Shown here in pieces: positions 12,088-48,943 of a stretch of DNA of 64,000 bases. The notes below the pieces were generated by a model that was not told the origin of the DNA, did no database searches, and saw only the letters and a program-made list of their open reading frames with translations. This DNA is from a virus (Duplodnaviria; Caudoviricetes). Each line of letters opens with the position of its first letter. Within the stretch, counting starts at the first letter, position 1. The stretch is from positions 12,585 through 76,584 of the IMG/VR virus record IMGVR_UViG_3300032305_001732; one strand, given 5' to 3'. A program made the position numbers and the translations under genes.

Positions 12088-12332
12088 CCGAATTTAACTG
12101 GGCAACCGCCGCACTAATTTTTATAACGTACGTCCTGATTGATATCTTATACGCGTGGTACATTATCGCGGTCGGTAAGCGCCAGGAAATACAGGCGTCT
12201 GTGGCTAGTTCGCTGTTGTATAGTCTTTCGGCTTATGGCGTGATCACGTATTCCCGAAATATCACGTATATTGCTTTTTTGGCTGCCGGCGCATTTCTAG
12301 GCACGTACATTATCGTAAAGCTCAAGAAATGA
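12084..12332 (+). CDS. Small membrane protein
   Basis: Three hydrophobic segments; ATGA overlap with the upstream stop. Confidence 0.65.
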   Translation: MTEFNWATAALIFITYVLIDILYAWYIIAVGKRQEIQASVASSLLYSLSAYGVITYSRNITYIAFLAAGAFLGTYIIVKLKK

Positions 12333-12556
12333 GCCAGCCGTTATCCCGGGAGGTATTACTGGCACACGGCAGGTGTTGCGGCGGAAGATGCCAAAATTGC
12401 CCGTATATCCCCAGGCATATTGGCGGCAGTAAGCAGATTCAGCCAGTGTGTTTTGTGTGCCAAGGCGAACTGCAGGAAATACGCGGAAAACTGATCTGCA
12501 AAGAGTGCCACACGATTAACGAAACATGCTGTGACGGCGGGCAGTGCGCTACATAA
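12329..12556 (+). CDS. Small Cys-rich zinc-binding protein (DUF5522-like CCG..C..CPY + zinc ribbon)
   Basis: GRCCGGRCQNCPY followed by CFVC...CKEC...CCDG. Confidence 0.65.
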   Translation: MSQPLSREVLLAHGRCCGGRCQNCPYIPRHIGGSKQIQPVCFVCQGELQEIRGKLICKECHTINETCCDGGQCAT

Positions 12557-12689
12557 GCCGCATAGAAAATGGCTATTCTGTACAATAAAGCGACGGTATT
12601 CGGTCTTGTTTTTGCTGAATCCCCGTTGGCGGCTTGTTATTGATTTGATATGCTGAGACTACATTCCGCACATTATGGAGATTTACACT

Positions 12690-16742: not shown

Positions 16743-16762
16743 TTAAACAACAAGGATGTCAC

Positions 16763-17485
16763 ATGGCAAAACAGCCCAGCCGCACAGCGAACAAATCAGC
16801 ACGTCGACAGGAACGCAAACAAGCGCGCAAAGACAAACAGGACACGAACGTTTATTCGCCGGTAGAGTTTAAGCCTCGCACAGAATCGCAACGGCACGCC
16901 CTCGAGCTTGTCGCTGATAATGACATGAGTTTCCTTCTCGGATCTGCGGGTTCAGGCAAAACGTTTCTAGCTATGGCTTATGCAATTAATCAGGTGCTGA
17001 CTAAACAGGTAGATAAGATTGTTCTGACGCGGCCTATTGTCGAAGCCGGCGAGAAGCTTGGGTTTCTGCCGGGCACGTTTGGCGATAAGGTAAATCCGTA
17101 CATGCAGCCCCTTTACGACACCATGGAGGTGTTGTTGGGTAAGCAAGGAGCTAAGCGCGAGATTATCAATAAAGCTGTGGTGCTTGCGCCGCTATGTTAT
17201 ATGCGCGGGCGTACATTTAATGATTCAATCTGTATTTTTGACGAGGCGCAAAATGCCACGTACACGCAGCTTAAATTGTTTCTGACGCGTTTTGGGCAAA
17301 ATACGAAGGTTATCGTTACGGGTGATCCAGACCAGAGCGATCTCGTGACAGGCCGCCGAGAAGATTGCGCTTTGACCGAGGTCGTGGACAGGCTTAAAGG
17401 CACGGCGGGTATTGGTATGTATAAGTTTACCCATGCTGACGTCGTGCGCCATCCGCTAGTAGCTGCTGTGTTGCGCAAGCTGTAA
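16763..17485 (+). CDS. phoH: PhoH family ATPase
   Basis: GSAGSGKT, LTRPIVEAGEKLGFLPG, YMRGRT, DEAQN, GDPDQSD and VVRHPLV motifs. Confidence 0.95.
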   Translation: MAKQPSRTANKSARRQERKQARKDKQDTNVYSPVEFKPRTESQRHALELVADNDMSFLLGSAGSGKTFLAMAYAINQVLTKQVDKIVLTRPIVEAGEKLGFLPGTFGDKVNPYMQPLYDTMEVLLGKQGAKREIINKAVVLAPLCYMRGRTFNDSICIFDEAQNATYTQLKLFLTRFGQNTKVIVTGDPDQSDLVTGRREDCALTEVVDRLKGTAGIGMYKFTHADVVRHPLVAAVLRKL

Positions 17486-17996: not shown

Positions 17997-18083
17997 GGAC
18001 AGGTGGCAGAGCGGTTGAATGCACTGGTCTTGAAAACCGGCGAGCCCTGACGGGCTCCGGGGGTTCGAATCCCTCCCTGTCCG
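17997..18083 (+). tRNA. trnS: tRNA-Ser (anticodon UGA); CCA not encoded
   Basis: Acceptor stem GGACAGG/CCTGTCC, D-loop with GG, anticodon arm CTGGT-CT TGA AA-ACCGG, long variable arm (GAGCCC/GGGCTC) and T-arm GGGGG-TTCGAAT-CCCTC. Confidence 0.95.
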
Positions 18084-21837: not shown

Positions 21838-22539
21838 ATGCAGAAGCGTTGGTACTACTGTTACGTTATCGTATACCCGTCGCTTGGGTATAAGTTCTAC
21901 TACGGCTCGCGCATAACAAAAAATGCGCCCGAGGCCGACCATGATTACTTCGGGTCGTCCGTTACTTTTAGTCACTACAACGACACAGAGCATGCCGAGT
22001 ATCAGGCTGACGCTTTAAAAATTATTCTCTGGGCCGCGCACCTGCCAAAAGCCAAGAAACACGCACTGGCTCTCGGCGCGCTTGAGGCGGCTAATATTCG
22101 TGCCGCGCTAGATAACCGCGAGCATCTCGGGCCGGATATTTGCTTAAACCGTAATTACGGCGGGCGTATTGTATTGACGCCAGCTGAGTACAAAGCAGCT
22201 GCTGAAAAATCGCGGCAGGCTGGTTCTGGGTTTGCAGGTATGTCTAAAAAAATGCACAAAAAATGGGCTACGCTTGGCGGTCAATTGTCTAAGCTGCATG
22301 GCAAAGGCGTGCACGGACTTAGCCAAGAAGAGCGCCGCCGCAATTCAGTTCTAGGTGCGGGTGTTATAAAGGACAAGTACGCAAAAGATTACACGTTTTG
22401 CGACCCAAACGGCGAGCTTGTAGCAATTAGAAATTTGAAAGCATTTTGCCGCGAGCATAATTTAAATCCTGGGCATATGCGCAGCGTAAATTGCGGCAGA
22501 ATTAAATCACACAAAGGATGGCGCAAGCCCGCAGAATGA
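21838..22539 (+). mobile_element. Free-standing GIY-YIG/Seg-like homing endonuclease with C-terminal NUMOD-type DNA-binding repeat
   Basis: YCYVIVY...FYYGSR...YFGSS (degenerate GIY-YIG); CLNRNYGG; C-terminal NLKAFCREHNLN...HKGW. Confidence 0.6.
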
Positions 22540-22865
22540 ACGAATACATAATTAATGGCGTAGCTATTGGTTTATTGGTTGGCTACATTGTCGGACGTTT
22601 AGACTTTTTGGTCTTTTTGACTAAGTGCTCGGAGCGCTCTGTAGCAGCATCGCAGGCGTCCGTTATAAATAAACCGCGTAGTTTCTTTGATCAGCCAGAA
22701 GAGAAAGCAAAACCTGCTTTAGACATAGACACGCGCAAGTTTGTAAATCCGGTTAAAACGGATGATTTGACCAAGGCCGCCGACACTAGTCTTGGCAAAA
22801 CGACTGTGGCGCACGATGATATTCAGGCATCGGTATCAAAGCTCGCACAGCTCAAAGGAAAATAA
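22536..22865 (+). CDS. Single-pass membrane protein
   Basis: N-terminal TM segment (IINGVAIGLLVGYIVG), ATGA overlap with the upstream gene, and directly upstream of the actin-like gene. Confidence 0.65.
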   Translation: MNEYIINGVAIGLLVGYIVGRLDFLVFLTKCSERSVAASQASVINKPRSFFDQPEEKAKPALDIDTRKFVNPVKTDDLTKAADTSLGKTTVAHDDIQASVSKLAQLKGK

Positions 22866-22866
22866 C

Positions 22867-23871
22867 ATGGCCAAAGGTTTAGACGTCGGTACCTCATTTG
22901 TCGTACTTGCGCAGGACGGGGCTGAAGGTAATGTGCAGTACAAGGACTTCCGTGACGCGTTTTACGTCATTAAGCCGACAACTCCCGTCGCCACGAAGAT
23001 GATTGAAAAAGGACTGCAGGGCAAAATCTTCGTCAAAGACGCTGACGGCAGTTTTATTCTGCTAGGCCAGGACGCTATCGAAAAAGCTGTGGAGCGCAAT
23101 GATTCTGCTAAGCGCCCTATGTACCGCGGCGTAGTTAGCCCGAAGGAAAAAGACGCTAAACGTATTTTGGCCTATATCTTGAAAGAAGTAGCCGGAACTG
23201 CTGCTGAGCCGGGCGAGAAGCTTGTTTTCTGTATCCCTGCGCAGCCCGTCGATCAAGAGGACGAAGACTTTGACGTCGGTTATCACGAAGACGTTGTAAA
23301 GCTTGTGCTATCCGAAGTTGGTTACGCAGCTAGGGCAATTAACGAAGCAGAAGCGCTGTGTTACTCAGAGTTTGAGAACGACGATTACACGGGTATTGCG
23401 TTGTCTTGGGGCGCTGGCATGGTAAATTGCTGCGTCATGCTTAATGGCGAACCAACTGTTATGTTCTCGACCACCAAATCCGGCGACTGGGTTGATCGAA
23501 TGTCAGCCGTCGCTGTAAATGTTCCTGATAGCGTAGTGCAGGCTGAAAAAGAGCATGGCGTATTTAAAGTCGGCGAGCCCAACGACAATCCGACTTTGGC
23601 AGCCGTGGCGTCATATTATGAGCGCTTAGTAGACTACACGGCTAAACAGCTTACACACGCACTGACTGGTCATAAGTTACTGCCGCAATTTAAACACCCG
23701 CTGCCGGTTGCTGTTGCTGGCGGTACAAGCAAAGCTGACGGTTTTGTTGCCGCTTTTTCCGCTAAACTACAAGAGAGTGGTTTTCCGCTCGCCATTAAAG
23801 AGGTCCGCCACGCTGCTGACCCACTCCACGCTGTAGCCCGCGGCTGTCTAATCGCAGCCAAGATTTTATAA
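22867..23871 (+). CDS. Actin/Hsp70-fold ATPase (MreB/FtsA/ParM-like)
   Basis: Phosphate 1 GLDVGT, connect 1 INEAEA, phosphate 2 SWGAGMVN and adenosine motif VAGGTS; also RPMYRGV and CIPAQP. Confidence 0.8.
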   Translation: MAKGLDVGTSFVVLAQDGAEGNVQYKDFRDAFYVIKPTTPVATKMIEKGLQGKIFVKDADGSFILLGQDAIEKAVERNDSAKRPMYRGVVSPKEKDAKRILAYILKEVAGTAAEPGEKLVFCIPAQPVDQEDEDFDVGYHEDVVKLVLSEVGYAARAINEAEALCYSEFENDDYTGIALSWGAGMVNCCVMLNGEPTVMFSTTKSGDWVDRMSAVAVNVPDSVVQAEKEHGVFKVGEPNDNPTLAAVASYYERLVDYTAKQLTHALTGHKLLPQFKHPLPVAVAGGTSKADGFVAAFSAKLQESGFPLAIKEVRHAADPLHAVARGCLIAAKIL

Positions 23872-23895
23872 CCGTTTCGGGTTACGTATACGCGC

Positions 23896-23904
23896 TGTTA
23901 AAAT
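23896..23904 (+). promoter_or_regulatory. Extended -10 promoter element (TGnTAAAAT)
   Basis: TGTTAAAAT lies about 6 nt upstream of the 5' strand of the closing stem of the structured RNA candidate. Confidence 0.55.
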
Positions 23905-23908
23905 GAGT

Positions 23909-24130
23909 TTGTCGTAAGTTAGTCGTGGTGGCCGGCTGGTTAGCGTTAGGGTGTTAAGCAGGGATGTGAGACGCCCTAATAGGAATCCGTGGTCAGGCTG
24001 CGGCCGCGCTCACGGTTGGTGGAGCAATGAATGCCGCACGAGGTTGAGTTTACACCTTAGAAAGTCATTGCTTTGCCCCGGTTCGCCGGGGTTCGGTCCT
24101 GTGGAAGGGGATCACAGGGGCTTACGACAA
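23909..24130 (+). ncRNA. Candidate novel structured RNA (about 220 nt), family unknown
   Basis: Perfect 10 bp terminal stem TTGTCGTAAG/CTTACGACAA enclosing five internal stems, one with a UUCG loop. There is a promoter upstream and a T5 run downstream, and no convincing ORF. Confidence 0.6.
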
Positions 24131-24153
24131 CCTTTTTAACAGAGAGTCAAAAC

Positions 24154-24513
24154 ATGGTAGACGAATATATGCATTCGTTAACTGTGTTTTTAAGTGCGTT
24201 CGGCGTCTCGGCCTTCGCTGGTCTTGCTACGCTATTACGGTTTTCGCGCAGGCAGGTATCAAAGATTTCAGTTTTTAGCGCTATGTTAAACGCCGGCTTT
24301 TTAGGGCTGGCTATTGCTTTAATTTGGTATCAGAATTATCGAAAAGCCGAAAACATTCACGGATTAATAGGTATTTGTGTTCTTGCCGGAATGGGTGGTT
24401 CCACGCTGACCGATTTGTTAATATCTCTATTAGCAGGAGCCGGCATAAAAGTCATCATTACCCACGAACGCGACGACCACGGGAGGCCAGACGATGACAC
24501 AGGAAATTCGTAA
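24154..24513 (+). CDS. Holin-like membrane protein (3 TM)
   Basis: Three TM segments with a charged C-terminal tail. Confidence 0.5.
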   Translation: MVDEYMHSLTVFLSAFGVSAFAGLATLLRFSRRQVSKISVFSAMLNAGFLGLAIALIWYQNYRKAENIHGLIGICVLAGMGGSTLTDLLISLLAGAGIKVIITHERDDHGRPDDDTGNS

Positions 24514-24649
24514 AGACCTGAGCGTAGCGGCAATTATGGCGACAATGGTGTGCGCCGCTTTATTGCTTATTTCGGCTAGGGCAGCTGCGGAACACGGCGC
24601 ACCAGAAACGTCGGCTAAAAACCCTGAAATTTCCGCCCTTCCGCGCTAA
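24494..24649 (+). CDS. Small (51 aa) membrane-anchored protein, not in the ORF track
   Basis: GGGAGG SD, ATG at 24494, MTQEIRKDLSVAAIMATMVCAALLLISARAAAE..., TAA at 24647-24649. Confidence 0.55.
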   Translation: MTQEIRKDLSVAAIMATMVCAALLLISARAAAEHGAPETSAKNPEISALPR

Positions 24650-24669
24650 TACTGCACACAGGGCCGAAC

Positions 24670-26067
24670 ATGGACGGATTGTCTGTTTTATACCAGTCGA
24701 CGCATTCGGCGCCGTTGTACAACATCGGTAACGCGTATGGCTGGCTAGCTAAATCGTCTAAAACAGCTAGCGCTGAATACCATCTATCCGGCCGGCTTTA
24801 TTTAGCTAAAAGCGGCTGGCTTCTTTTATCTGTGCCAAATGCTCTCGTCCGTGGCGTATTTGACGCTATGTCACATGCCGGCGCTGAGCTGCCGCTTGCT
24901 GGCACTATGAATGTGCCCAACGTAGATAAAGAGCTTTTAAACGCGCATATCTCGGTTATGACGGCCGATGACGTAGAAGCTATTGGCGCTAACAAGATCA
25001 ACGAGCGTGGGCATTCTTTTAAGTACGCGTTAGGCCACGTCAAAGAGCTTACGCCCGGCAACATTGACGGGGTTAGCAAAATTTGGGCTATTCAGATCGC
25101 GAGCCCAGAGCTGTCGGCCTTGCGCAAAAGCTATGGGTTGTCTGCGTTGCCTAAAGACGAGCCATTCCACATTACTGTAGCTGTGCGCCGTAAGAACGTG
25201 CTGCGCGAGAACGACGTTAGCAAGTTTGATACAGCTTCTGGCCGCGGGGAGCTAAAAGCGGCCGCAGACGCCGAAACTACGTATGAGTGCAATTGCGCTG
25301 GCCACTGCACCTGCCCGCCTAACTGCGTGTGCAAGAAATCCTGCTGCAAACCATCTAAAACAGCCGCCGACCTTATTCCTGGCGGCGCGGCGGACAACGT
25401 ACCCGACAGTAAGTTCCCTAAAAAAGATTTAGCTTTAGGAGTCAAAGATGAGCGAGAACATACAAGCAATGATCAAATCGCCAAAGAAATTGCCAAAGAT
25501 CATTTGCAAGAAGACCCCTCCTACTACGAAAAAGAAAAGCTGAAATCTGTAGGCAAAACACCGCAAATTATCTTACAACTACGTGCTGCAAAAGAGCATT
25601 CAGATAACAAGCGGTATGACCAGAAAAACCACATTTTGCGGCAATTAATATCAGCCGCTCCGCAGGATTGGGTTGTCGATGATCCGAAACCTTACCATAT
25701 GGGCATCACCCACGCCCCGACTAAATTTAAATTTCACGCTGATCCGAAGATAATTCCGCCTGTTGTGCCGGTAAGCAAAGCCGCGTCGAATAACCCGTAT
25801 ATTGCGCAACTATTTGCTACCCCGCCTAGTATGACTCCCGGCAATACTACTTGGCAGAATGTTGTGCAGCATTTGCGCAATGTTAAGACACGCGGAGATC
25901 GTCAGGCGTTTGCAGAACAGAACACGCAAGGTTTATTGGCAGAACTCGACCCTGAATACAAGAAGAAATTGCACGCGCAGATTGCCAGCAAGAATTATCC
26001 GCGGCCCGATTTTTTAACTAGGATGATTCAACAACACGGAGACAGCGCGTTGAACGCTGTGTCGTGA
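24670..26067 (+). CDS. Modular protein: 2H phosphoesterase + 8-Cys peptide + DUF5661-like domain + further segments
   Basis: HISV (24946) and HITV (25168) paired H-x-S/T motifs; CNCAGHCTCPPNCVCKKSCC; EREHTSN..IAKEIAKDHL.EDPSYY. Modules are separated by SKTA, LKAA, SKTA and SKAA. Confidence 0.7.
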   Translation: MDGLSVLYQSTHSAPLYNIGNAYGWLAKSSKTASAEYHLSGRLYLAKSGWLLLSVPNALVRGVFDAMSHAGAELPLAGTMNVPNVDKELLNAHISVMTADDVEAIGANKINERGHSFKYALGHVKELTPGNIDGVSKIWAIQIASPELSALRKSYGLSALPKDEPFHITVAVRRKNVLRENDVSKFDTASGRGELKAAADAETTYECNCAGHCTCPPNCVCKKSCCKPSKTAADLIPGGAADNVPDSKFPKKDLALGVKDEREHTSNDQIAKEIAKDHLQEDPSYYEKEKLKSVGKTPQIILQLRAAKEHSDNKRYDQKNHILRQLISAAPQDWVVDDPKPYHMGITHAPTKFKFHADPKIIPPVVPVSKAASNNPYIAQLFATPPSMTPGNTTWQNVVQHLRNVKTRGDRQAFAEQNTQGLLAELDPEYKKKLHAQIASKNYPRPDFLTRMIQQHGDSALNAVS

Positions 26068-27483: not shown

Positions 27484-27885
27484 ATGGCAAAACTTTCAAC
27501 TGATCGCGTTGCGGCGATGACCGAGGCTTTAAACGCGCTGCCGGTAGAAGAAGTGCGTATGTTAGAGTCTGCTGACAACGCAGTCAGCGGGCAGTGGATT
27601 ACGCCAGAGTTTCTTTCGCTTCTCGCTACTGTGGCTGTTAATCTTGTCACTGCGGCAACCGTGGTTGGCTGGATTGACGCTACGCAAGCGCAAGAACTGG
27701 CAAAAGCCGTGTCAGCGATTATTGCCGCTGTGAGCGTTATTAGCGTTAACGGGCTTGTCGTGTGGAAGTATCTGGCTGGCCGTAACGAATTACAATCGCA
27801 AAAAATTCAGGCGCAATACCGCTACTTAGAGGTTGTCGCGTCTGAGCGTATTCAATGGGCGGCTAAACCAGCCTCACGCCGATGA
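27484..27885 (+). CDS. Holin-like two-TM membrane protein
   Basis: AAGGAG SD; two TM segments (after W.TPEF); basic C-terminus. Confidence 0.5.
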   Translation: MAKLSTDRVAAMTEALNALPVEEVRMLESADNAVSGQWITPEFLSLLATVAVNLVTAATVVGWIDATQAQELAKAVSAIIAAVSVISVNGLVVWKYLAGRNELQSQKIQAQYRYLEVVASERIQWAAKPASRR

Positions 27886-28289
27886 CTGAACAAGAACTGC
27901 ACAATCGGATCGAGTCGAGCCAGGCGCTACGGCGGGCAAAGGAGACGTTGTCTAACGAAGTCTCTTTTCGCGCTGGTCCGTCGGCTCGATTCGATCCGAT
28001 TACAATAATCATGATTATCTCGGTTATCGTGCAAGTACTTGCGTACTGCCGCAGTCGAAGAACATCAGATTTAATAATTGCCGATATCAAGAATGCGCGG
28101 GCGTTACCGCGGTGGCGTACGCGTAGATTACGCCAAAAACTAAATAAGCTGTGGGACGAATATTGCAATGGCGAAGAGGAGTGCGACGATAACGCATTTT
28201 TATCCTCAACGCTAGACTTTGCCGAAACAGCAACTGACGAGGAAATACACGAAGTTATGGCCCTCGCCGCCGAACAGCACAATACTTAA
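27882..28289 (+). CDS. Hypothetical single-TM protein
   Basis: FDPITIIMIISVIVQVLAYC hydrophobic segment; ATGA coupling to the upstream gene. Confidence 0.6.
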   Translation: MTEQELHNRIESSQALRRAKETLSNEVSFRAGPSARFDPITIIMIISVIVQVLAYCRSRRTSDLIIADIKNARALPRWRTRRLRQKLNKLWDEYCNGEEECDDNAFLSSTLDFAETATDEEIHEVMALAAEQHNT

Positions 28290-28305
28290 ACGCAGGGAGG
28301 CGTTT

Positions 28306-29115
28306 GTGGCAAAAAAATCAAAAGACAAAAACATTCTGTCGACGCAAGAAATTCTGCGTAAACTTCATGCTTACGGGTATTTTGGTAAGCAGCCATGGAC
28401 TACGACGAAGAAAACAAGCGGTAAAGCTCTAGAAGCCGCCGTACGCGAGTACCAGAAGTTTAATGGCTTAGAGCCCACTGGTGTCGTGGGCACGCGTACC
28501 GCGCATACTCTTGGGCATTATCGTTGCGGCTTGCCTGATTTTAATCTGACGTCTGGCGACAGCCCATGTAAGTGGCCGCACGCCAATATTACGTATTACT
28601 CTGAGCTGCAACTCCCCGGCGTGAGCGCTGAACAAGTGCAGCTTGCGTATGACACTGCGTTTGCTCAATGGGCTGCAGTATGTGATATCAATCCTGTACG
28701 AGTCGACTCGGCTGGTAAAGCTAATATTTACGCGCGTTCTGGTAAGGGAAAATCCGTCAATCTCGATGATCGCGGCGGTACGTTAGCGTGGAGTGAGTTA
28801 CCGTGCGGCGTTACGGAACAAATGCAGCTTGACCAAATGTACGACGAAGCGGAAGATTGGTCTTTTGACATGGCTGTTGCCGTTATTTGTCACGAGCTCG
28901 GCCACGCATTGGGGTTGGCGCATCTTAGTCGCGGTAATTTAATGGCGCCTTACTACAACCCAAATGTGCGCGCTCCGCAAAAAGGCGATATTGAGGAGAT
29001 GGTGGCGCTTTACGGTAAACGTAAAAAGGCTGCGCAAACAGCCCAAAGCGGCATTCAAGTTGCGGGTACAATTATGTTGAACGGGCAGCCCTACATGCTA
29101 GTTCCACAATTCTGA
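28306..29115 (+). CDS. Matrixin (M10A, MMP-like) metalloprotease with PGBD-like prodomain and cysteine switch
   Basis: GGGAGG SD + GTG start; AVREYQKFNGL..TG.VG helical domain; RCGLPD (28522-28539); KW...ITY; HELGHALGLAH; Met-turn LMAPYY. Confidence 0.85.
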   Translation: MAKKSKDKNILSTQEILRKLHAYGYFGKQPWTTTKKTSGKALEAAVREYQKFNGLEPTGVVGTRTAHTLGHYRCGLPDFNLTSGDSPCKWPHANITYYSELQLPGVSAEQVQLAYDTAFAQWAAVCDINPVRVDSAGKANIYARSGKGKSVNLDDRGGTLAWSELPCGVTEQMQLDQMYDEAEDWSFDMAVAVICHELGHALGLAHLSRGNLMAPYYNPNVRAPQKGDIEEMVALYGKRKKAAQTAQSGIQVAGTIMLNGQPYMLVPQF

Positions 29116-34087: not shown

Positions 34088-37000
34088 ATGCCAGACTTAA
34101 ATCCGTCCAATTCTATTCTCGGACCCACTACGCGCGAGTTCGGTGACGTTCAGTCACTGCGCAGCGGTATTTTTAATCAAGCGCAGCAGTCGGCGTTGCA
34201 AGTAGCGCCGTTTGAGCCTGGCGCTATTCGTACAGGCATTTTTAATGGCGTGCTGCAGCAAGCACAGAATATCAAGCCAATACAAAATGATCTTTATACG
34301 CTCAGCCTGCAAGACGTGAATTACGAAGGCCCCGAGAACTTTACAAAAAAAGATCACAAGCAGGCAGTGCTGTCACACGGCAGTCTGGCGCGTAAATTGC
34401 GTGGTACTTGGACGTTGACTGACAACGCGAGCGGCGAAGCAATATCGCAACGGCGCGCAACGATTGCGAATGTGCCCTATCTAACGCACGCCGGCACGTT
34501 TGTGAACAATGGCGTCGAGTACACGCTGGCCCACCAGATGCGTTTACGCCCAGGTGTGTATACGCGTGAAAAAGACAACGGCGAGCTGGAAGCGCATGTA
34601 AACGTCCTTCCAGGCAAAGGCCGCATGCATCGTTACTTTCTTGACCCGAAGACCGGCGTATTCAAGATTAATATCGGCCAGGCGCAGATTCCGCTTATGC
34701 CCATGCTTAAAGCAATGGGTGTTCCAGAGCAGGAAATTCGCAAGGCGTGGGGTAATGAATTAACCGCCGTAAACATGGAGAAGGGCGATGCAGGAACTCT
34801 GGACAAACTGTATAACCGGCTGGTTTATAAACCCGTTGCCGACCTTGATCCCGCTGGTAAGCAAAAAGCTATTGCGGAAGAATTCAGCAAGATGGAGCTG
34901 GACCCGGAAGTCACTAAAAGGACGCTCGGCGCGCCGATTAAAAACCTAACGCCAGACGCAGTGCTCGCAATCACTAAAAAGCTTATAGCAGTTAATCGTA
35001 AAGAAACTGATCCAGATGACCGCGACAGCATGGCATTCCAGCAAGTATTCGGCCCTGAAGACCTTATTGCCGAGCGCTTCACAAAAGACCGGAATACGCT
35101 GCGGCAATTGCTATGGAAAGCTACGGCAAAAAAGACATTAGATCACGTACCGACTGGCGTATTTAACAAAGCTATTACGGCTGCGCTTGTCGGCAGCGGG
35201 TTAGGCTCGAGTCTTGAAGAAATTAACCCTGCTGAAATCTTCGACCACCAGGCTCGAGTTACGCGGCTAGGCGAGGGCGGTATTGGTAGTCTCGATGCCG
35301 TGCCGGTTGAAAGCCGAAGCGTGCAGCCTAGTCACTTCGGATTTGTGGATTATCTCCGCACTCCTGAATCTGGCAAAGTTGGCGTTGATATGCGTTTTGC
35401 TCGCGGGGCGCTTAAGGGCGCTGACGGAAAGATTTACACGCAGGTAAAAAACCTACAGACGGGCGAGACCGAATATAAATCTCCACAGGACATTGCCGAT
35501 GCGCCGCTGGCGTTTCCCGGCGAAGATACGTCCGATCTGCCGACAGTCGCCGCTATTGTTAATGGCAAAATGAAATACGTACCGCGTGAGCAGGTGCAGT
35601 ACATGCTTCCCCACATGGACGCGTCTTTCTCTTCGCTGTCTAACATGGTGCCACTCAAATCCATGATGAAGGGCCATCGCGTCATCATGGGTAGCCGTAT
35701 GTTCACGCAAGCATTACCGCTCGTTGGCGCTGAGGCGCCTTTTATTCAATCGGGCGTCCACGGTACACCAGACCGATCGTACGAAGATGAGATGGGCAAG
35801 CACATGGGCGCAATCCATGCAGACGGCCCGGCCCAAGTTGTATCTGTAACGCCTGACGAGATCGTTCTTCGCGATAAGGACGGCAACAAACGTTCCGTCG
35901 ATCTTTACAACGATGCACCATTTAATCGTAAAACATTCTGGACGCAAACACCGACAGTTCAGCCTGGTGATACGGTAAAGCCGGGACAGTTACTGGCAAC
36001 GTCTAATTTTACTGACAAGCAAGGCACTGCTGCGCTTGGGTTAAATATGCGCGTAGGCTATCTGCCGTTTAAAGGCTACGTGTATGACGACGCTGTGGTT
36101 GTTTCGGAATCTGCGGCAAAGCGCCTGACGTCTGAGCATATGTATCAGCACGAAGCAGAAGCCGACGACAACAATCATATAGACAAGCGTAAGTTCGTTA
36201 GTTTGTTTCCGCAGGAATATGATCGCAAGACGCTAGACAACTTTGACGATAACGGCGTGGTTAAAAAGGGTACGACTGTTAAATACGGCGACCCGCTTAT
36301 TCTTGTCAGCAAAGCTAATGAAACAACATACGGGCAGGTATATCGCGGCAAGTCGGCTAACTTCGCAAACGACTCCGTGACCTGGAATCACCATTCGCCG
36401 GGTATAGTTACAGACGTGTCGCCGACTAAAAAAGGTTACAGCGTTGTAGTTAAAAATCAGGCCCAGATGGAAGTAGGCGATAAGCTTACAGGTCGCTTCG
36501 GCGATAAGGGCGTCGTGGCAGCTGTTATTCCTGACGATCAAATGCCGAAAGACACACAGGATCGTCCGCTTGAGGTTCTGGTGAGTCCGCTTGGTTTGGC
36601 TAGTCGTATTAATCCTTCGCAGCTTGTAGAAGCCGCGCTAGGTAAAGTTGCAGAGCGGACTGGTCAGCCTTACAAGATTCAAGACTTCGATAGTGCGCGG
36701 GATCTCGTGCAATTTGCAAAAGACGAATTGCGCAAAAACAACATGAACGATCTTGAGAGCGTCACAGACCCAGAAACTGGTCGCAAGATTAAAGACGTGC
36801 TTGTAGGCAATCGTTTCTTTATGAAATTGCACCATACAGCTGAGGCCAAAGCACAGGGGCGATCGACCGGCGGCTACACGGCTGAAGGCGCGCCGGCAAA
36901 GGGTGGTGAAACAGGCTCTAAGCGAATCGGCACACTCGATCTTGGCGCTTTATTATCTCACGGCGCTGGGCAGGTTATTCGGGACGCGAAGATGGTGCGC

Positions 37001-38539
37001 GGGCAGGCTAATCCTGAGTACTGGTCGCAATTCATGGCTGGCTATTCTGCGCCGTTACCTAAGATACCGCAGGTGTACCACAAGTTTGTTGAGCAGTTGC
37101 GCGGTGCTGGTATTAACACAGTACGCGAAGGTACTAAAACAAACATAATGGCGCTAACCAATAAGGACATTGACGAGCTTGCCGGCGATCGCGAGATTCA
37201 AAATGCAGAGACTGTTGATTGGAAATCTGGCATGCGTCCAAAGACGGGCGGACTGTTTGACGAGAAGTTAACAGGCGGCCACAACGGTAATCGCTGGTCT
37301 AAGATCACGTTGCACGAGCCTATGCCGAATCCTGTGATGGAAGAGCCTATTCGGCGTGTGCTTGGGCTTACAGAAAATAAATTCCGTAGTGTGCTGGCAG
37401 GGAAAGAGCAGTTGGGCGATAAAACTGGCCCGTCGGCTATTAAAGACGCGCTAAGCCGCATAGACCTACCGAAGGCTATGGAGCAGGCGCGCCAAGATAT
37501 TCATTCTGGGCGTAAAATGGCCCGTGATGCTGCTGTTCGCCGGTTAGCATTCTTAAAAAGTGCAGAAAAGACTGGTGTACATCCGGAAAATTGGATGCTG
37601 GACAAGATGCCGGTGATCCCGCCGGCGTTTAGACCCGTGTCGACGATGGGGCAAAAGAAGATGCCGCTCGTTGCTGACGCTAATTATCTCTATAAAGAGC
37701 TTCTAGACGCTAACGGAGCGCTAAAAGACTCGTCCGGCGTGTTGTCAGACACTGGCGACGAGCGTTTAGGGTTATACGACGCCATGAAAGGCGTTACAGG
37801 CCTCGGCGACCCAACACAATCAAAGAATGTAGAGCGCCGAGTACGTGGTTTTCTGTCGCAGATCTTTGGAAATTCGCCAAAATACGGCACAGTGCAGCGA
37901 AAACTGCTTAGCAGCACTGTAGACCTAGTCGGCCGCGCTGTTATTACGCCTAATCCCGACCTAGACATGGATCAGGTGGCGCTTCCGGAAGAAAAAGCCT
38001 GGGAAATATACAAGCCGTTTATTGTACGCGGCCTTGTGCGGCGTGGTTTGCCTCGTATGGAAGCTATCAACGCATTTGACGGCAAGAGTAAAGAAGCGCT
38101 AAGCGAACTTCAGACGCAAATGAACTCGCGGCCAATTATTATCAATCGCGCGCCCGTTTTACATCGTTATGGTATGATGGCCTTTTATCCAAGGCTGACA
38201 AAAAACAAAGTTATGGAGGTTAGTCCGCTTGTAACCAAGGGTTTCGGCGCCGACTTCGACGGTGACGCGATGCAATATCACGTCCCAAGCACGGATGACG
38301 CTGCCAAAGAAGCTGTTGCGAAGATGCTGCCAAGTAAAAACTTGTTTGCGGCTTCTACATTCAAAGCGCACTACACTCCAGTAGCGGAATATCAGTCAGG
38401 GCTGTATGTTGCTTCTAATAGAATCAACAAACAAGCGCAGCCGAAGGTATTTAGAAGTAAACAAGACGCAATTGCGGCATATCGACGTGGCGACATTGAG
38501 GTTGACACGCCAGTACATATCGTAGAGAGCGACGATTAA
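34088..38539 (+). CDS. rpoB: Multisubunit RNA polymerase: beta fused to the N-terminal/catalytic half of beta'
   Basis: beta motifs RVTRLGEGG, TPES, GDKLTGRFGDKG, PLGLASRIN and MKLHH..KAQGRSTG; then beta' motifs GGLFDEK, PVIPPAFRP, KLLSSTVDLVGRAVI, INRAPVLHR and the catalytic GADFDGD (38246-38266). Confidence 0.93.
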   Translation: MPDLNPSNSILGPTTREFGDVQSLRSGIFNQAQQSALQVAPFEPGAIRTGIFNGVLQQAQNIKPIQNDLYTLSLQDVNYEGPENFTKKDHKQAVLSHGSLARKLRGTWTLTDNASGEAISQRRATIANVPYLTHAGTFVNNGVEYTLAHQMRLRPGVYTREKDNGELEAHVNVLPGKGRMHRYFLDPKTGVFKINIGQAQIPLMPMLKAMGVPEQEIRKAWGNELTAVNMEKGDAGTLDKLYNRLVYKPVADLDPAGKQKAIAEEFSKMELDPEVTKRTLGAPIKNLTPDAVLAITKKLIAVNRKETDPDDRDSMAFQQVFGPEDLIAERFTKDRNTLRQLLWKATAKKTLDHVPTGVFNKAITAALVGSGLGSSLEEINPAEIFDHQARVTRLGEGGIGSLDAVPVESRSVQPSHFGFVDYLRTPESGKVGVDMRFARGALKGADGKIYTQVKNLQTGETEYKSPQDIADAPLAFPGEDTSDLPTVAAIVNGKMKYVPREQVQYMLPHMDASFSSLSNMVPLKSMMKGHRVIMGSRMFTQALPLVGAEAPFIQSGVHGTPDRSYEDEMGKHMGAIHADGPAQVVSVTPDEIVLRDKDGNKRSVDLYNDAPFNRKTFWTQTPTVQPGDTVKPGQLLATSNFTDKQGTAALGLNMRVGYLPFKGYVYDDAVVVSESAAKRLTSEHMYQHEAEADDNNHIDKRKFVSLFPQEYDRKTLDNFDDNGVVKKGTTVKYGDPLILVSKANETTYGQVYRGKSANFANDSVTWNHHSPGIVTDVSPTKKGYSVVVKNQAQMEVGDKLTGRFGDKGVVAAVIPDDQMPKDTQDRPLEVLVSPLGLASRINPSQLVEAALGKVAERTGQPYKIQDFDSARDLVQFAKDELRKNNMNDLESVTDPETGRKIKDVLVGNRFFMKLHHTAEAKAQGRSTGGYTAEGAPAKGGETGSKRIGTLDLGALLSHGAGQVIRDAKMVRGQANPEYWSQFMAGYSAPLPKIPQVYHKFVEQLRGAGINTVREGTKTNIMALTNKDIDELAGDREIQNAETVDWKSGMRPKTGGLFDEKLTGGHNGNRWSKITLHEPMPNPVMEEPIRRVLGLTENKFRSVLAGKEQLGDKTGPSAIKDALSRIDLPKAMEQARQDIHSGRKMARDAAVRRLAFLKSAEKTGVHPENWMLDKMPVIPPAFRPVSTMGQKKMPLVADANYLYKELLDANGALKDSSGVLSDTGDERLGLYDAMKGVTGLGDPTQSKNVERRVRGFLSQIFGNSPKYGTVQRKLLSSTVDLVGRAVITPNPDLDMDQVALPEEKAWEIYKPFIVRGLVRRGLPRMEAINAFDGKSKEALSELQTQMNSRPIIINRAPVLHRYGMMAFYPRLTKNKVMEVSPLVTKGFGADFDGDAMQYHVPSTDDAAKEAVAKMLPSKNLFAASTFKAHYTPVAEYQSGLYVASNRINKQAQPKVFRSKQDAIAAYRRGDIEVDTPVHIVESDD

Positions 38540-38551
38540 ACAGGGAGGTTT

Positions 38552-39274
38552 GTGATGGCTATTGTTAATGCAGAGCTGCTTCGTTTAGCCAAGCAGCGGT
38601 TCACTAAAGCCGCTGTTGTAATGCCGGGCATGGACCCAGCCGCTGGCGGTGCGCCCCCCGCTGACCCGGCCGCTATGGGCGCCCCTCCCGCCGACCCGGC
38701 TGCTATGGGCGGCGCTCCGGCGCCAATGCCGGCTATGGATCCAAACGCCATGGCGGCGCAAGCTGCCCCGCCAATGCCTCCAGCCGGTGGTCCACCCGCA
38801 GCCGCGCCGCAGCAAAAGCTTAAGCCGGAACAAATGATGCAGATGATCGACTATCGTCTGTATAACATGCAACAGCAATTAACTGCGATCATGAATGCCT
38901 TGGGCGTAAAACTTCCGCCCGAGGCAATTGTGCTGCCCCCCGGATCGACCTCCGCGCCCGCGCCAGAAACGGCGCTCCCCGGCGGTCCCGGCGCTCCGGC
39001 AGCCCCTGCGGCAGCTCCTGCTGCTGGTGGCGATCCCGCCGCCGCGCAGCTGCCGCAGGACGTATACGCGGGGCCCGATCCTACGCAGAACGGCGGCGCG
39101 GTGTCGCCGATCGCGCCAGCAAAGGCCGCGTGGTGGCAGCAACCAGAGCCGGCGAAGGCTGCTTCTTATATTGGCGATCCGGTGCCGGCGACTGAAGAAG
39201 TTCCGGCTGACTTACAGGTTTCAGCAAACGCCACGAGCTTTTTGCTGAGGAGCCTGTCGCAAAATGCGCGTTAA
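38552..39274 (+). CDS. Pro/Ala-rich low-complexity protein with a short central helical domain
   Basis: DPAA(G/M)GAPPA repeats at about 38633-38720; LKPEQMMQMIDYRLYNMQQQL core; TKAA and two AKAA motifs; no Cys. Confidence 0.6.
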   Translation: MMAIVNAELLRLAKQRFTKAAVVMPGMDPAAGGAPPADPAAMGAPPADPAAMGGAPAPMPAMDPNAMAAQAAPPMPPAGGPPAAAPQQKLKPEQMMQMIDYRLYNMQQQLTAIMNALGVKLPPEAIVLPPGSTSAPAPETALPGGPGAPAAPAAAPAAGGDPAAAQLPQDVYAGPDPTQNGGAVSPIAPAKAAWWQQPEPAKAASYIGDPVPATEEVPADLQVSANATSFLLRSLSQNAR

Positions 39275-39506
39275 AACGCAACATTTCCTGCAGCCAGCTA
39301 TTGCTGACGCGCATAGCGTGATAGTTGAAAACGCTGCAGGTCAGCCGATATTCATAGCCATTGAAGGCGATGGCGGCAGTGTAATTGCTGCACAAGCCGG
39401 CGACCCGGACTTTGCCGGAATGCTTAAAATGCTTGGCGTAGAGAAAACGACAATGGTTTACAATATGAAACCAAAGTCGATCGAGGAAATGAAGGCGCTG
39501 TTTTAA
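39264..39506 (+). CDS. Small hypothetical protein between the RNAP genes
   Basis: 80 aa ORF coupled to both neighbours. Confidence 0.6.
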   Translation: MRVKTQHFLQPAIADAHSVIVENAAGQPIFIAIEGDGGSVIAAQAGDPDFAGMLKMLGVEKTTMVYNMKPKSIEEMKALF

Positions 39507-39507
39507 T

Positions 39508-41367
39508 ATGCTGAAAACAACGCTCGGCCAACTTTTGATTAACAACGCGCTTCCGCAAGACCTGCGGGACCATAACCGCGTTTTAAACAAAAAGAACATG
39601 ATCGCGTTGGCTACCGAGATAGCGCAAAAATATCCTGACAAGTACCGCGAAATAACAAAGCGATTACAGGACATCGGCAACGAGACGTCCTACACGACTA
39701 ACGGCTTGTCTGTAGGCCTAGACGCTATTCGCCCGGCTGTGTCTGCAATTAAAAAGCAGCACGAGGTTAGGCAGCAGTTGCGTGGAATTCTCGCCGACCG
39801 CACGCTGGATGACAAAACACGCAATATGCGCATTCTCGAGATGACGTCGAAGGCGCAGCGCGAGCTTGTAGACTCTGTGTACAAAGACGCAGAGGAGCAA
39901 GACAATCCCTTATTCCACCAAGTATCAGGCGGGGTTAAAGGCAATAAGTTTCAGTTAAACAGCATCATTGGCGCTGACCTGCAATACGTCGATCACAAAA
40001 ACGAGCCAATTCCAATTCCGGTAATGCGCGGCTACAGCCAGGGTCTGCGACCTGTTGAATATTTCGCTGGCGCGTTCGGCACACGAAAAGGGCTAATTGA
40101 CTTAAAGACAGCTACGTCCGACGCAGGTTTCTTTGCCAAGCAACTTGCGCAGATGAACCACAGACTGCTCGTGACGGCTGACGACGACGAGATCGCTGAT
40201 GACACGCGCGGGTTTCCGTCTGATGTTGATGACGTAGATAACGAAGGCGCATTGTTAGCTAGAGGCGTCGGACCGTATAAGCGCAACACGACACTAACGC
40301 CGAAGATACTAAAAGATCTTAAATCGCTAGGTATTAAAGACATTCTTGTACGCAGCCCGACTGTTGGCGGTCCGGAAGACGGCGGCGTATACGCTAAAGA
40401 CGTAGGCTATCGCGAGAAGAATAGACTACCGCCGACTGGCGATTATGTCGGTATCGCGGCAGCTCAGGCGCTTGCGGAACCTGTTACGCAGTCGCAGATT
40501 AGCTCAAAGCATTCTGGCGGCGTCGGTGGCGCTGGCGCTATTTCTGGTTTTAAGGCGCTCAACGCGCTCGTGCAGGTGCCAGAGAAATACCCAAATGGTG
40601 CTACGCATTCATCTATTGACGGCGCAGTGCAAGAAATCCGGCCGGCCGCGCAGGGTGGCAGTTATGTAGTAATTAACGGCCAAGACCATTACGTACCTAC
40701 TGGCGTGGCAGTGACAGTCAAACGTGGCGACAATGTTGAAGCCGGTGACGTTGTATCTGAGGGTATGCCAAGTCCAAAAGAAATAGTCGCGCACAAAGGC
40801 ATTGGCGAAGGTCGTCGATATTTTGTGCAGGCTATGAAGCAAGTTATGGGCAACAGCGGCATTACAGCGCATCGCCGTAATATTGAGCTGCTTTCGCGCG
40901 GGCTTATTAATCACGTACGCATGACAGACGAATACGGTGATTATTTACCTGACGACGTAGTGCCGTACTCAATGATTGAACGTAACTGGCAGCCGCGTGC
41001 AGGAAGCGTCCGCGCAGCGCCAAAAAGCCTGCAAGGACATTACCTCGAAAAACCGACTCTGCATTATTCTGTTGGAACAAAAATCGGTAAATCTGTCGTA
41101 GACAATTTAAACAAATACGGCATTACAGACGTCGAAGCGCATAAAGAGCCGCCGCCGTTTGAACCAGAGATGGTGCGCGGCATGGCTAATATCTCGAAAG
41201 ATCCTGACTGGATGACTCGCATGCTCGGGTCATATCAGCAGAAAAGTTTACTGCAAGCCACACACCGCGGCGGCGTTAGCGATACGGCAGGTACTAGTTT
41301 TGTACCGACGCTTGCCCGCGGAGAAACATTTGGTTTAGGCGGCGCGACAAGTGGCTGGAAACCGTAA
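39508..41367 (+). CDS. rpoC: RNA polymerase beta' C-terminal half
   Basis: Bridge helix GTRKGLIDLKTATSDAGFFAKQL; trigger loop AAQALAEPVTQSQISSKHSGG; VKRGDNVEAGDVVSEG; HRRNIELL. Confidence 0.9.
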   Translation: MLKTTLGQLLINNALPQDLRDHNRVLNKKNMIALATEIAQKYPDKYREITKRLQDIGNETSYTTNGLSVGLDAIRPAVSAIKKQHEVRQQLRGILADRTLDDKTRNMRILEMTSKAQRELVDSVYKDAEEQDNPLFHQVSGGVKGNKFQLNSIIGADLQYVDHKNEPIPIPVMRGYSQGLRPVEYFAGAFGTRKGLIDLKTATSDAGFFAKQLAQMNHRLLVTADDDEIADDTRGFPSDVDDVDNEGALLARGVGPYKRNTTLTPKILKDLKSLGIKDILVRSPTVGGPEDGGVYAKDVGYREKNRLPPTGDYVGIAAAQALAEPVTQSQISSKHSGGVGGAGAISGFKALNALVQVPEKYPNGATHSSIDGAVQEIRPAAQGGSYVVINGQDHYVPTGVAVTVKRGDNVEAGDVVSEGMPSPKEIVAHKGIGEGRRYFVQAMKQVMGNSGITAHRRNIELLSRGLINHVRMTDEYGDYLPDDVVPYSMIERNWQPRAGSVRAAPKSLQGHYLEKPTLHYSVGTKIGKSVVDNLNKYGITDVEAHKEPPPFEPEMVRGMANISKDPDWMTRMLGSYQQKSLLQATHRGGVSDTAGTSFVPTLARGETFGLGGATSGWKP

Positions 41368-46696: not shown

Positions 46697-46794
46697 CCCT
46701 CTACTATGCCCTTACTGACGAAACAACCATTTTTCTCTTGTGCGCCATCATGCAAACGCTATGCCTCTGCTACCTCGTCTGGAGGTCGCCGTGA
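46693..46794 (+). CDS. 33 aa hydrophobic peptide, not in the ORF track
   Basis: ATGA coupling; MTLYYALTDETTIFLLCAIMQTLCLCYLVWRSP. Confidence 0.35.
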   Translation: MTLYYALTDETTIFLLCAIMQTLCLCYLVWRSP

Positions 46795-46825
46795 AACACG
46801 TAAGGAGCCATTAAGGTAATAACTT

Positions 46826-47089
46826 ATGCCTATTTCATTTCCAGCTTCGCCCACAGTGGGGCAAACGAGTACGCAAAACGGTCGGACCTATACGTGGTCT
46901 GGCTATGCGTGGGAACTAGTCACTGCGAGTAACGCCGGCAGCGGTGGGGCAAACAACTACGTAGAAAGCGACATTACCGGGCTTACCGGCGGGACAGTTC
47001 TTACAAACATTGTTAAAATTACCCAAGCCGGCTATAACGCGCTGTCGACTAAAGATCCGGCAACCGTGTACTACATTGTTTCCGGGTAA
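46826..47089 (+). CDS. Short fibre-type protein
   Basis: ISFPASPTVGQ...NGRTYTWSGYAW N-terminal motif and ITQAGYNALSTKDPATVYYI C-terminal motif, both typical of phage fibres. Confidence 0.65.
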   Translation: MPISFPASPTVGQTSTQNGRTYTWSGYAWELVTASNAGSGGANNYVESDITGLTGGTVLTNIVKITQAGYNALSTKDPATVYYIVSG

Positions 47090-47094
47090 TTGTT

Positions 47095-48607: not shown

Positions 48608-48854
48608 AACTCCACAGCGCGCCAATAACTGTACCGACACAAAAATTAATGCCGCCTAATACTGGTAACAGATAGGACAACGTACGCGCAGTCTCGTAGC
48701 CAAATTCCACATCGTGCGCCATTAATTGCGCGTACGGCGAATTAGCTAAAACGTAAAACTCGGTCAGCGGCATGGATACGGTCATCCAAGCAAACACAAA
48801 TCCGCAAAGCAACGCGCGAACAACCCCTATAGCGCAAAGCAAAATTAGTCGCAT
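48600..48854 (-). CDS. Two-TM membrane protein; the only credible minus-strand gene
   Basis: GGAG SD on the minus strand (complement of ctcc at about 48860); fills the gap between converging and diverging neighbours. Confidence 0.55.
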   Translation of the reverse strand: MRLILLCAIGVVRALLCGFVFAWMTVSMPLTEFYVLANSPYAQLMAHDVEFGYETARTLSYLLPVLGGINFCVGTVIGALWSFK

Positions 48855-48943
48855 AATTACTCCAAGTTAAAGGTGTGAGTAATTCCTTGCTCGTGATTAT
48901 ACTGCTATTACGCTAACAACACACTAATATTTAATACCGGCTA

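Follow-up and report, generated by a model that had tools for sequence, protein, structure and literature searches.

The window analyzed here, a 64,000-nucleotide stretch of DNA from an uncultured phage, contains a structured non-coding RNA of about 222 nt (23909–24130, + strand) in which a long closing stem, P1, encloses six hairpins. The RNA is genuine, has a complex fold, and is under strong selection; it is a family missing from the Rfam catalogue and confined to a clade of uncultured phages with genomes of approximately 200 kb. It lies just upstream of a gene for a small membrane protein, and our best reading of its function, which we put forward tentatively, is that it serves as a cis-acting leader or attenuator of that gene.

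The source of the window is a 76.6-kb IMG/VR viral contig (IMGVR_UViG_3300032305_001732) with an estimated completeness of 37%. Its relatives are uncultured lake phages of 195–205 kb, several of which have terminal repeats. The RNA is located in a 282-nt gap between an actin gene of the Volactin family (22792–23871; PF25216, E 5e-60) and the gene for the 119-aa membrane protein (24154–24513, + strand). A preliminary description of this DNA had called the gap the longest in its run of genes, which was not confirmed: among the gaps within the window that are free of ORFs of 90 aa or more, those at 12088–12674, 46697–47094, and 48608–48943 are longer. The actin gene and a 115-aa ORF overlapping its start (together 22518–23871) form a pair that is kept across the clade, and distant actin homologues with about 32% identity are present in two huge phages of 485–595 kb. 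Upstream of the actin operon is an HNH endonuclease gene (phrog_2081, 21838–22539), probably a mobile homing endonuclease, which only some of the relatives have.

Homologues of the RNA were found by using the actin and membrane proteins as anchors, and were harvested with blastn, two degenerate patterns, and a covariance model (R1) built in this analysis. The harvest yielded 67 distinct copies of the RNA from viral and metagenome contigs, with a single copy in each near-complete genome that has it. Covariation was counted over 51–67 distinct homologues, depending on the test.

The minimum free energy of the + strand was −96.2 kcal/mol, compared with −81.0 ± 4.5 kcal/mol for dinucleotide shuffles (z −3.4), and none of the 200 shuffles was as good; the opposite strand reached only −71.4. 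We assign the RNA to the + strand because G-U pairs are dominant there and the − strand has the weaker fold. Analysis with RNAalifold showed double (compensatory) changes in 38 of 57 pairs. When pairs were counted over 51 distinct rows, standard pairs occupied 97.6% of the cells, compared with 34–44% when the partners were slid, and changes compensated on both sides were found in 40 of 62 pairs, compared with 12–17 for slid partners. Shuffling 500 times never matched the observed pairing and compensatory values. Over 67 sequences, 58 columns were invariant, and 36 of these were unpaired. The preliminary description had proposed a structured non-coding RNA of about 220 nt; both the folding energy and the covariation among homologues bear this out, and it is the fold, not a reading frame, that the homologues conserve. 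A search for a conserved reading frame among them found none, and a coding role for the region was rejected, no frame being open in 40 of 47 homologues and lengths differing by non-multiples of 3.

P1 is formed by pairing of 23909–23919 with 24120–24130 (+ strand). It has 11 pairs, with 96.6% of cells paired and compensatory changes in 9 of the 11; in many relatives it is longer by 3–10 pairs, which extend into the flanks. All of the stems listed in the preliminary description were recovered where it had placed them, including a perfect 10-bp stem of 23909–23918 with 24121–24130. It had also extended that stem by two G-U pairs; one of these is present as a U-G pair, and the other is the first pair of hairpin A, a helix absent from its list. 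Hairpin A (23920–23938, + strand) is stacked on P1 and consists of 6 bp (23920–23925 with 23933–23938) and a 7-nt loop, UGGUGGC; it was 100% paired, with double changes in three pairs.

The loop of hairpin A takes part in a pseudoknot, in which GUGGC (23928–23932, + strand) pairs with GCCGC (24033–24037) in the internal loop of hairpin D. In 67 distinct sequences all five pairs were 100% standard, the consensus being GUGGY in loop A with RCCRC. Two of the pairs covaried: columns 25:129 were C-G in 36 sequences, U-A in 21, and U-G in 10, and columns 22:132 were U-A in 46, U-G in 14, and C-G in 7. Competition between loop A and the ribosome-binding site (AGGUGGC) for the GCCRC internal loop was considered and set aside, since it applies to part of one subclade only and not to the window.

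The remaining hairpins, all on the + strand, differ in how their conservation is distributed. Hairpin B (23946–23979; TTAGGGTGT/ACGCCCTAA) has a variable lower stem and an apex, CA-GGGA-UG (23959–23966), that is invariant in 67 sequences as (R)CA-GGGA-UG(Y). Hairpin C (23987–24015; CCGUG/CACGG, inner GGC-TGCG-GCC) was 96.6% paired; three of its pairs had double changes and five were invariant, as were the elements GGUCAG and CG-G. It is followed by a conserved purine-rich junction, GGnGGAGC (24016–24023), which begins with GGAGG in most homologues, GGUGG in the subclade of the window, and GGGGG in a few. Hairpin D (24024–24071; AGCAATGA/TCATTGCT, inner AGGT/ACCT) has a conserved internal loop, AAUGCCRCAC / UnGnAAG; its outer and inner stems were 100% and 99.6% paired, with compensatory changes in 10 of 12 pairs. 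One of its nucleotides, 24059, forms a lone long-range Watson-Crick pair with 24092. In alignment A4 the corresponding columns, 156:192, were U-G in 23 sequences, A-U in 15, U-A in 13, and C-G in 12, making 94% standard pairs, and the columns adjoining them showed no pairing. Hairpin E (24076–24091; CCCCGG-TTCG-CCGGGG) has a variable stem with compensatory changes in all five pairs and a loop that is mostly of the UUCG type. Hairpin F (24098–24118; CCTGTG/CACAGG) was 98.2% paired, with four compensatory pairs, and its loop, AGGGGAUC, which contains a second invariant GGA, did not vary in 67 sequences.

A search of the whole window against Rfam 15 at the gathering threshold gave a tRNA-Ser at 17997 and no other match. 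When the 701 nt around the RNA were searched with E up to 10, just two chance-level matches of 16 bits were obtained, and five relatives searched with E up to 5 gave tRNA-Asn plus noise and nothing else. The scope of Rfam 15 includes tRNA, tmRNA, RNase P, SRP, 6S, OLE, GOLLD, ROOL, raiA, HEARO, riboswitches, and the Csr/Rsm sRNAs; neither the gathering threshold nor the permissive ones placed a family at the RNA. ARAGORN found neither a tRNA nor a tmRNA at the locus. The preliminary description had noted that the hallmarks of tRNA, tmRNA, RNase P, and SRP were lacking, and these searches agree with it. Possible resemblances to the P4 helix of RNase P (GAAAGUC / GGCUU) and to 5S, T-box, and FMN RNAs were checked by eye; we rejected them, the nucleotides concerned belonging to covarying local helices and no model giving a score.

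A blastn search against 50,697 phage records gave no cultured-phage match, and the covariance model found nothing significant (E ~0.05–0.2) in the two distant huge phages with an actin homologue. A pattern search of 185,579 prokaryote genomes gave four matches, all of them attributable to chance, the best scoring 11.5 bits. Our literature search found no paper that describes the RNA. A catalogue compiled from IMG/VR in 2023, with over 10,000 candidate structured RNAs of viruses, reports motifs of 29–151 nt only (PMC10690425); fragments of the RNA may be listed there.

A promoter-like extended −10 element, TGTTAAAAT, is located at 23896–23904 (+ strand), right upstream of the RNA, as had been pointed out in the preliminary description. 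A hexamer of the form T-A-N-N-N-T was conserved in 65 of 66 distinct homologues (TAAAAT in 28, TAAACT in 15, TATAAT in 8, and TAAATT in 7). It was 3–6 nt before P1 in 57 of the 66, and TG was found at most 3 nt upstream of the hexamer in 61. In seven homologues with an extra 5′ hairpin the hexamer was 24–25 nt before P1; in the subclade comprising L174, L147, L212, L179, L145, L141, and L198, a small hairpin of about 20 nt separates the hexamer, TGATAAATT, from P1, and no U-rich tail follows P1. Several subclades have, directly 5′ of the −10 element, a terminator-like hairpin that belongs to the gene upstream. Because the hexamer has a fixed offset and is often preceded by such a hairpin, the RNA most likely starts a new transcription unit. 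The motif TGNTAAAMT occurred 7 times in the window, compared with 4.6 expected, and gave no sign of being a general, phage-wide promoter motif. Two ORFs at 34088–41367 (1483 and 619 aa) match beta-subunit families of phage multisubunit RNA polymerases; the phage probably brings an RNA polymerase of its own, although the putative promoter of the RNA looks host-type.

At the other end of the RNA, the T5 run that had been described after the closing stem is present at 24133–24137 (+ strand) and forms a terminator-like tail. In roughly 26 of 44 distinct homologues (~60%), several of them with T5, three or more T follow the extended P1 at a distance of no more than 2 nt. The U-rich tail is missing from two subclades, and therefore is not universal. 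A simple terminator scan did not call P1 plus T5, the "loop" being about 200 nt. In the window, the sequence CTGTTAAAA (23893–23904), part of which falls in the −10 box, could pair with the complementary TTTTTAACAG (24133–24142) located 3′ of P1. Because this extension of P1 over the −10 box showed no covariation in the TTGTATAAT subclade, our provisional reading is that an A-rich promoter here faces a U-rich tail. Given read-through from upstream, P1 might gain about 9 bp and with them an RNase III site, a possibility for which the homologues show no covariation. A TTTWTAAC motif recurs 3′ of P1 in several subclades.

The 119-aa product of the gene that follows has three predicted helices and an acidic C-terminal tail and is holin-like. 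The spacer between the RNA and this gene was 19–64 nt, with a median of 35, in all 63 scorable homologues; the distance from the actin gene to the RNA ranged from 37 nt to more than 3 kb. Among 13 near-complete relatives, 10 have both the RNA and the membrane gene and 3 have neither. The membrane gene has a weak ribosome-binding site (AGAGAG), whereas many of the window's other genes have sites of the AAGGAG type. Neither Pfam nor PHROG assigned the protein or 38 homologues to a family, holin or other. Its nearest ESM Atlas clusters partly carry Phage_holin_3_3 (score 0.91), which we take as a lead only; with its topology, this language-model lead makes a holin identity plausible. The preliminary description had placed the RNA ahead of a holin-like gene; its position upstream of a three-helix membrane gene is upheld, and membership of a holin family found no support in Pfam or PHROG.

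Farther downstream, a 465-aa protein with a 2H-SAK phosphoesterase domain and DUF5661 (24670–26067) follows the RNA and membrane gene in all relatives examined; it could act in RNA end-healing or in degradation of cyclic nucleotides. Many relatives have a tRNA-Asn(GTT) between the membrane and phosphoesterase genes (L003:4868–4940, L019:5441–5514, L031:5402–5477, and L182:8604–8676), and on account of this position we consider the tRNA to be in the same unit as the structured RNA. The corresponding part of the window (24514–24669) has no tRNA; a 51-aa membrane ORF is found there (24494–24649). A protein with PG_binding_1 and Peptidase_M10 domains, possibly an endolysin or virion lysin, is encoded at 28219–29115, and just upstream of it, at 27484–27885, is a 133-aa membrane protein with a faint match to Phage_holin_10. 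This metallopeptidase and second small membrane protein, which lie 3–4 kb downstream, may be the true lysis cassette.

Genes for a CsrA homologue (PF02599, above the cut-off) were found in all 10 RNA-positive and none of the 3 RNA-negative near-complete genomes. The CsrA gene, a 96-aa ORF in the complete relative L281, is about 73 kb from the RNA, and its product retains the equivalents of L4, R6, K7, and R44, which are key RNA-binding residues; the window's own record, at 37% completeness, has no CsrA. The co-occurrence with CsrA is confounded by descent: the three RNA-negative relatives, which lack the RNA, the membrane gene, and CsrA alike, are smaller genomes (138–159 kb) and probably represent one lineage. 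A GGA near the start codon is the hallmark of classic CsrA repression; the window has none within 22 nt of the start codon, and of 63 homologues only 10 do. Two GGA loops, those of hairpins B (23962–23964) and F (about 24108–24110), are invariant, whereas the GGnGGA of the purine-rich junction and a GGA in the junction between hairpins B and C are variable. The apex of hairpin B, (R)CAGGGAUG(Y), corresponds to the core of the CsrA SELEX consensus, RUACARGGAUGU (as cited in PMC2896534), and the window agrees with that consensus at 10 of 12 positions; the same apex, with its GGGA, is also an ordinary GNRA tetraloop. A precedent exists in the ColE7 lysis gene, which E. coli CsrA represses by way of one GGA in a hairpin loop and a second at the ribosome-binding site (PMC2896534). 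Elsewhere in the window, ACAAGGAUGU (16749–16765) matches 10 of 10 positions of the consensus core and overlaps the ribosome-binding site of a gene starting at 16763, and on this match it is a possible CsrA target. The core motif CANGGATG occurred 8 times in the window, compared with 5.2 expected, which is not significant.

We propose that the RNA would be the first part transcribed of its own unit, from a host-type −10 promoter, and would form the 5′ leader of the mRNA for the small three-helix, holin-like membrane protein. We infer this transcription start, the co-transcription with the membrane gene, and the action in cis from the conserved promoter-like element and the fixed gene linkage. 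In the fold, the long P1 is stacked on hairpin A and accompanied by five further hairpins, and the whole is locked by the pseudoknot that joins loop A to hairpin D's internal loop and by one or more lone long-range pairs. The leader so folded would set the output of the membrane protein. It might do so by either of two routes: P1 and the U-rich tail following it would halt transcription, or ribosome entry would be hindered at the weak ribosome-binding site 10–20 nt beyond P1. As effector, a CsrA-family protein, phage-encoded in the complete relatives, would be the most likely candidate, clamping the invariant GGA loops CAGGGAUG of hairpin B and AGGGGAUC of hairpin F; both this binding and the direction of the resulting control are what we infer from the loops and the co-occurrence.

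The preliminary description had offered either a stand-alone RNA or a leader timing the downstream gene. The evidence leans toward the leader without deciding the matter: we favor it because the spacer stays short in every scorable homologue and, at its shortest (19–25 nt), leaves little room for a separate promoter. Against a leader or attenuator are the two subclades without a U-rich tail and the scarcity of a GGA at the start codon. Against a CsrA leader in particular, hairpins with GGA suffice for CsrA, and the pseudoknot and the invariant unpaired positions are then unexplained. A conserved alternative pairing that might form an expression platform was sought in the spacers, and none was found.

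The main rival to the leader, possible but in our estimate less probable, is a stable trans-acting non-coding RNA that works as a ribonucleoprotein. It would be set free either when transcription terminates at the U-run following P1 or when an RNase III-type enzyme cuts the long P1 stack, would serve as a decoy of a phage or host CsrA dimer or as a partner of the adjacent membrane protein, as in OLE-OapA, and would leave the membrane gene to be expressed by read-through only. A free RNA of this kind is consistent with the RNA's apparent promoter, with 5′ and 3′ ends sealed in a stem of 11–26 bp like those of many stable RNAs, with the tail present in most homologues, and with the single copy per genome. 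A fold of this complexity, with its 58 invariant columns, goes beyond typical protein-operated leaders, and the tRNA-Asn in the same unit of relatives suggests that stable RNAs are processed from the transcript. Nothing, however, would oblige such an RNA to remain at most 64 nt from the same gene throughout the homologues, and two subclades are without the terminator-like tail. The invariance of two GGA loops and the presence of CsrA in the same genomes also speak for a trans-acting RNA, yet RsmY, RsmZ, and CsrB have about 7–20 GGA sites. The preliminary suggestion of a protein sponge has gained a candidate partner in CsrA, and the number of invariant GGA loops is unlike that of true sponges. 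We found nothing in favor of two other suggestions, a 6S-like regulator and a packaged RNA. Somewhat doubtful, though worth weighing, is a reading in which the RNA represents a class not seen before, a large pseudoknotted sensor or catalyst gating expression of a lysis-type membrane protein, or else is the RNA half of a membrane ribonucleoprotein like OLE-OapA. As a lysis timer of a jumbo phage it would be a riboswitch, a ribozyme, or an RNA-protein switch, with CsrA at most a co-factor. Conserved tertiary structure on this scale is seldom met in large RNAs, and those that have it have mostly proved to be ribozymes, riboswitches, or the cores of ribonucleoproteins.

More specific mechanisms are less probable. 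We regard as unlikely a riboswitch of a new class, in which the junction and pseudoknot would make a binding pocket. Its ligand would be a small molecule, for instance a nucleotide or a second messenger, that reports the state of the infected cell and that, once bound, would stabilize P1 and thereby adjust either termination or translation for the membrane gene. The 5′-leader position closed by P1 fits such a switch, as does the U-rich tail directly after P1 in most homologues; large aptamers typically show features of the kind seen here, namely a multi-helix junction, a pseudoknot, a lone tertiary pair, and invariant nucleotides that are unpaired (36 in this RNA). On the other hand, no ligand can be inferred, the RNA has a single gene context in a single phage clade, neither a terminator/antiterminator nor a sequestering alternative was found in conserved form, and no Rfam riboswitch family scored with E up to 10. 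There is slight probability that the RNA acts in processive antitermination or as a late leader, letting transcription enter the long same-strand gene block downstream. The order of promoter, ~220-nt RNA, U-run, and holin-like gene would suit this role, the longest downstream ORFs in the window are all on the same strand, and the phage encodes multisubunit RNA-polymerase beta-like proteins; yet the RNA has no likeness to put or EAR RNAs (Rfam negative), the U-run is not universal, the PG-binding metallopeptidase and other downstream genes are not obviously one late operon, and no feature ties the fold to RNA polymerase. Least probable of all, in our view, is a self-cleaving or otherwise catalytic ribozyme, which might make the 5′ end of the membrane-gene mRNA, with the conserved 2H-SAK phosphoesterase two genes downstream acting on 2′,3′-cyclic phosphate ends. 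That enzyme and the complex tertiary fold with its many invariant unpaired nucleotides speak for it, whereas known ribozyme families do not match, no cleavage site is evident, and one or two genes, plus a tRNA in relatives, lie between the RNA and the 2H enzyme.

If the link with CsrA is true, the phage would be importing its own Csr-type circuit, a protein with a cognate structured RNA, for a potentially lethal membrane protein, and this would be relevant to the open question of how lysis timing is controlled in jumbo phages. The RNA is short enough for direct biochemical and structural study.

Several known systems share features with this RNA. In the case of the lambda pR′ "6S" leader, which is Q-dependent, a short transcript terminates just ahead of the holin gene S; HK022 put RNA, a nascent RNA of two simple stem-loops, modifies RNA polymerase. 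The phage RNA resembles these in being a promoter-proximal RNA of about 200 nt that ends in a U-run before the first lysis gene, but they are without a comparable conserved tertiary fold, and no similarity to them was detected. 6S RNA is a long, mostly double-stranded rod with a large central bubble mimicking an open promoter, in contrast to the multi-helix junction and pseudoknot found here, which gave no 6S match in Rfam. With the lysine, cobalamin, and FMN riboswitch aptamers the RNA shares size, a P1-closed junction, long-range loop contacts, and a 5′-leader position; however, none of these families scored with E up to 10, and neither a ligand nor an expression platform was found. CsrB, RsmY, and RsmZ also have a promoter-like start, GGA in hairpin loops, and, like most of the homologues, a terminator-like end. 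They differ in having about 7–20 GGA sites, compared with two invariant and one to three variable ones here, and the phage RNA, whose tertiary fold is rigid and conserved, has no Csr/Rsm match in Rfam and is joined to the gene that follows it.

CsrA/RsmA leaders (glgC, pgaA; ColE7 cel, PMC2896534) likewise are 5′ leaders with a GGA in a short hairpin loop that fits the consensus. The phage RNA is far larger and more intricate than any known CsrA leader, with its pseudoknot and seven-helix junction, and a GGA overlaps the ribosome-binding site in no more than 10 of the 63 homologues; the ColE7 cel precedent is itself a lysis gene, and here a CsrA homologue is present in every near-complete RNA-bearing phage genome. 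OLE is a bacterial RNA (Firmicutes) of about 610 nt, unrelated to this one in sequence and structure (no Rfam match), and nothing points to RNA binding by the phage membrane protein as by OapA. What the two systems share is their arrangement, in which a large, highly conserved structured RNA lies immediately upstream of the gene for a small membrane protein with several helices, and neither is found without the other.
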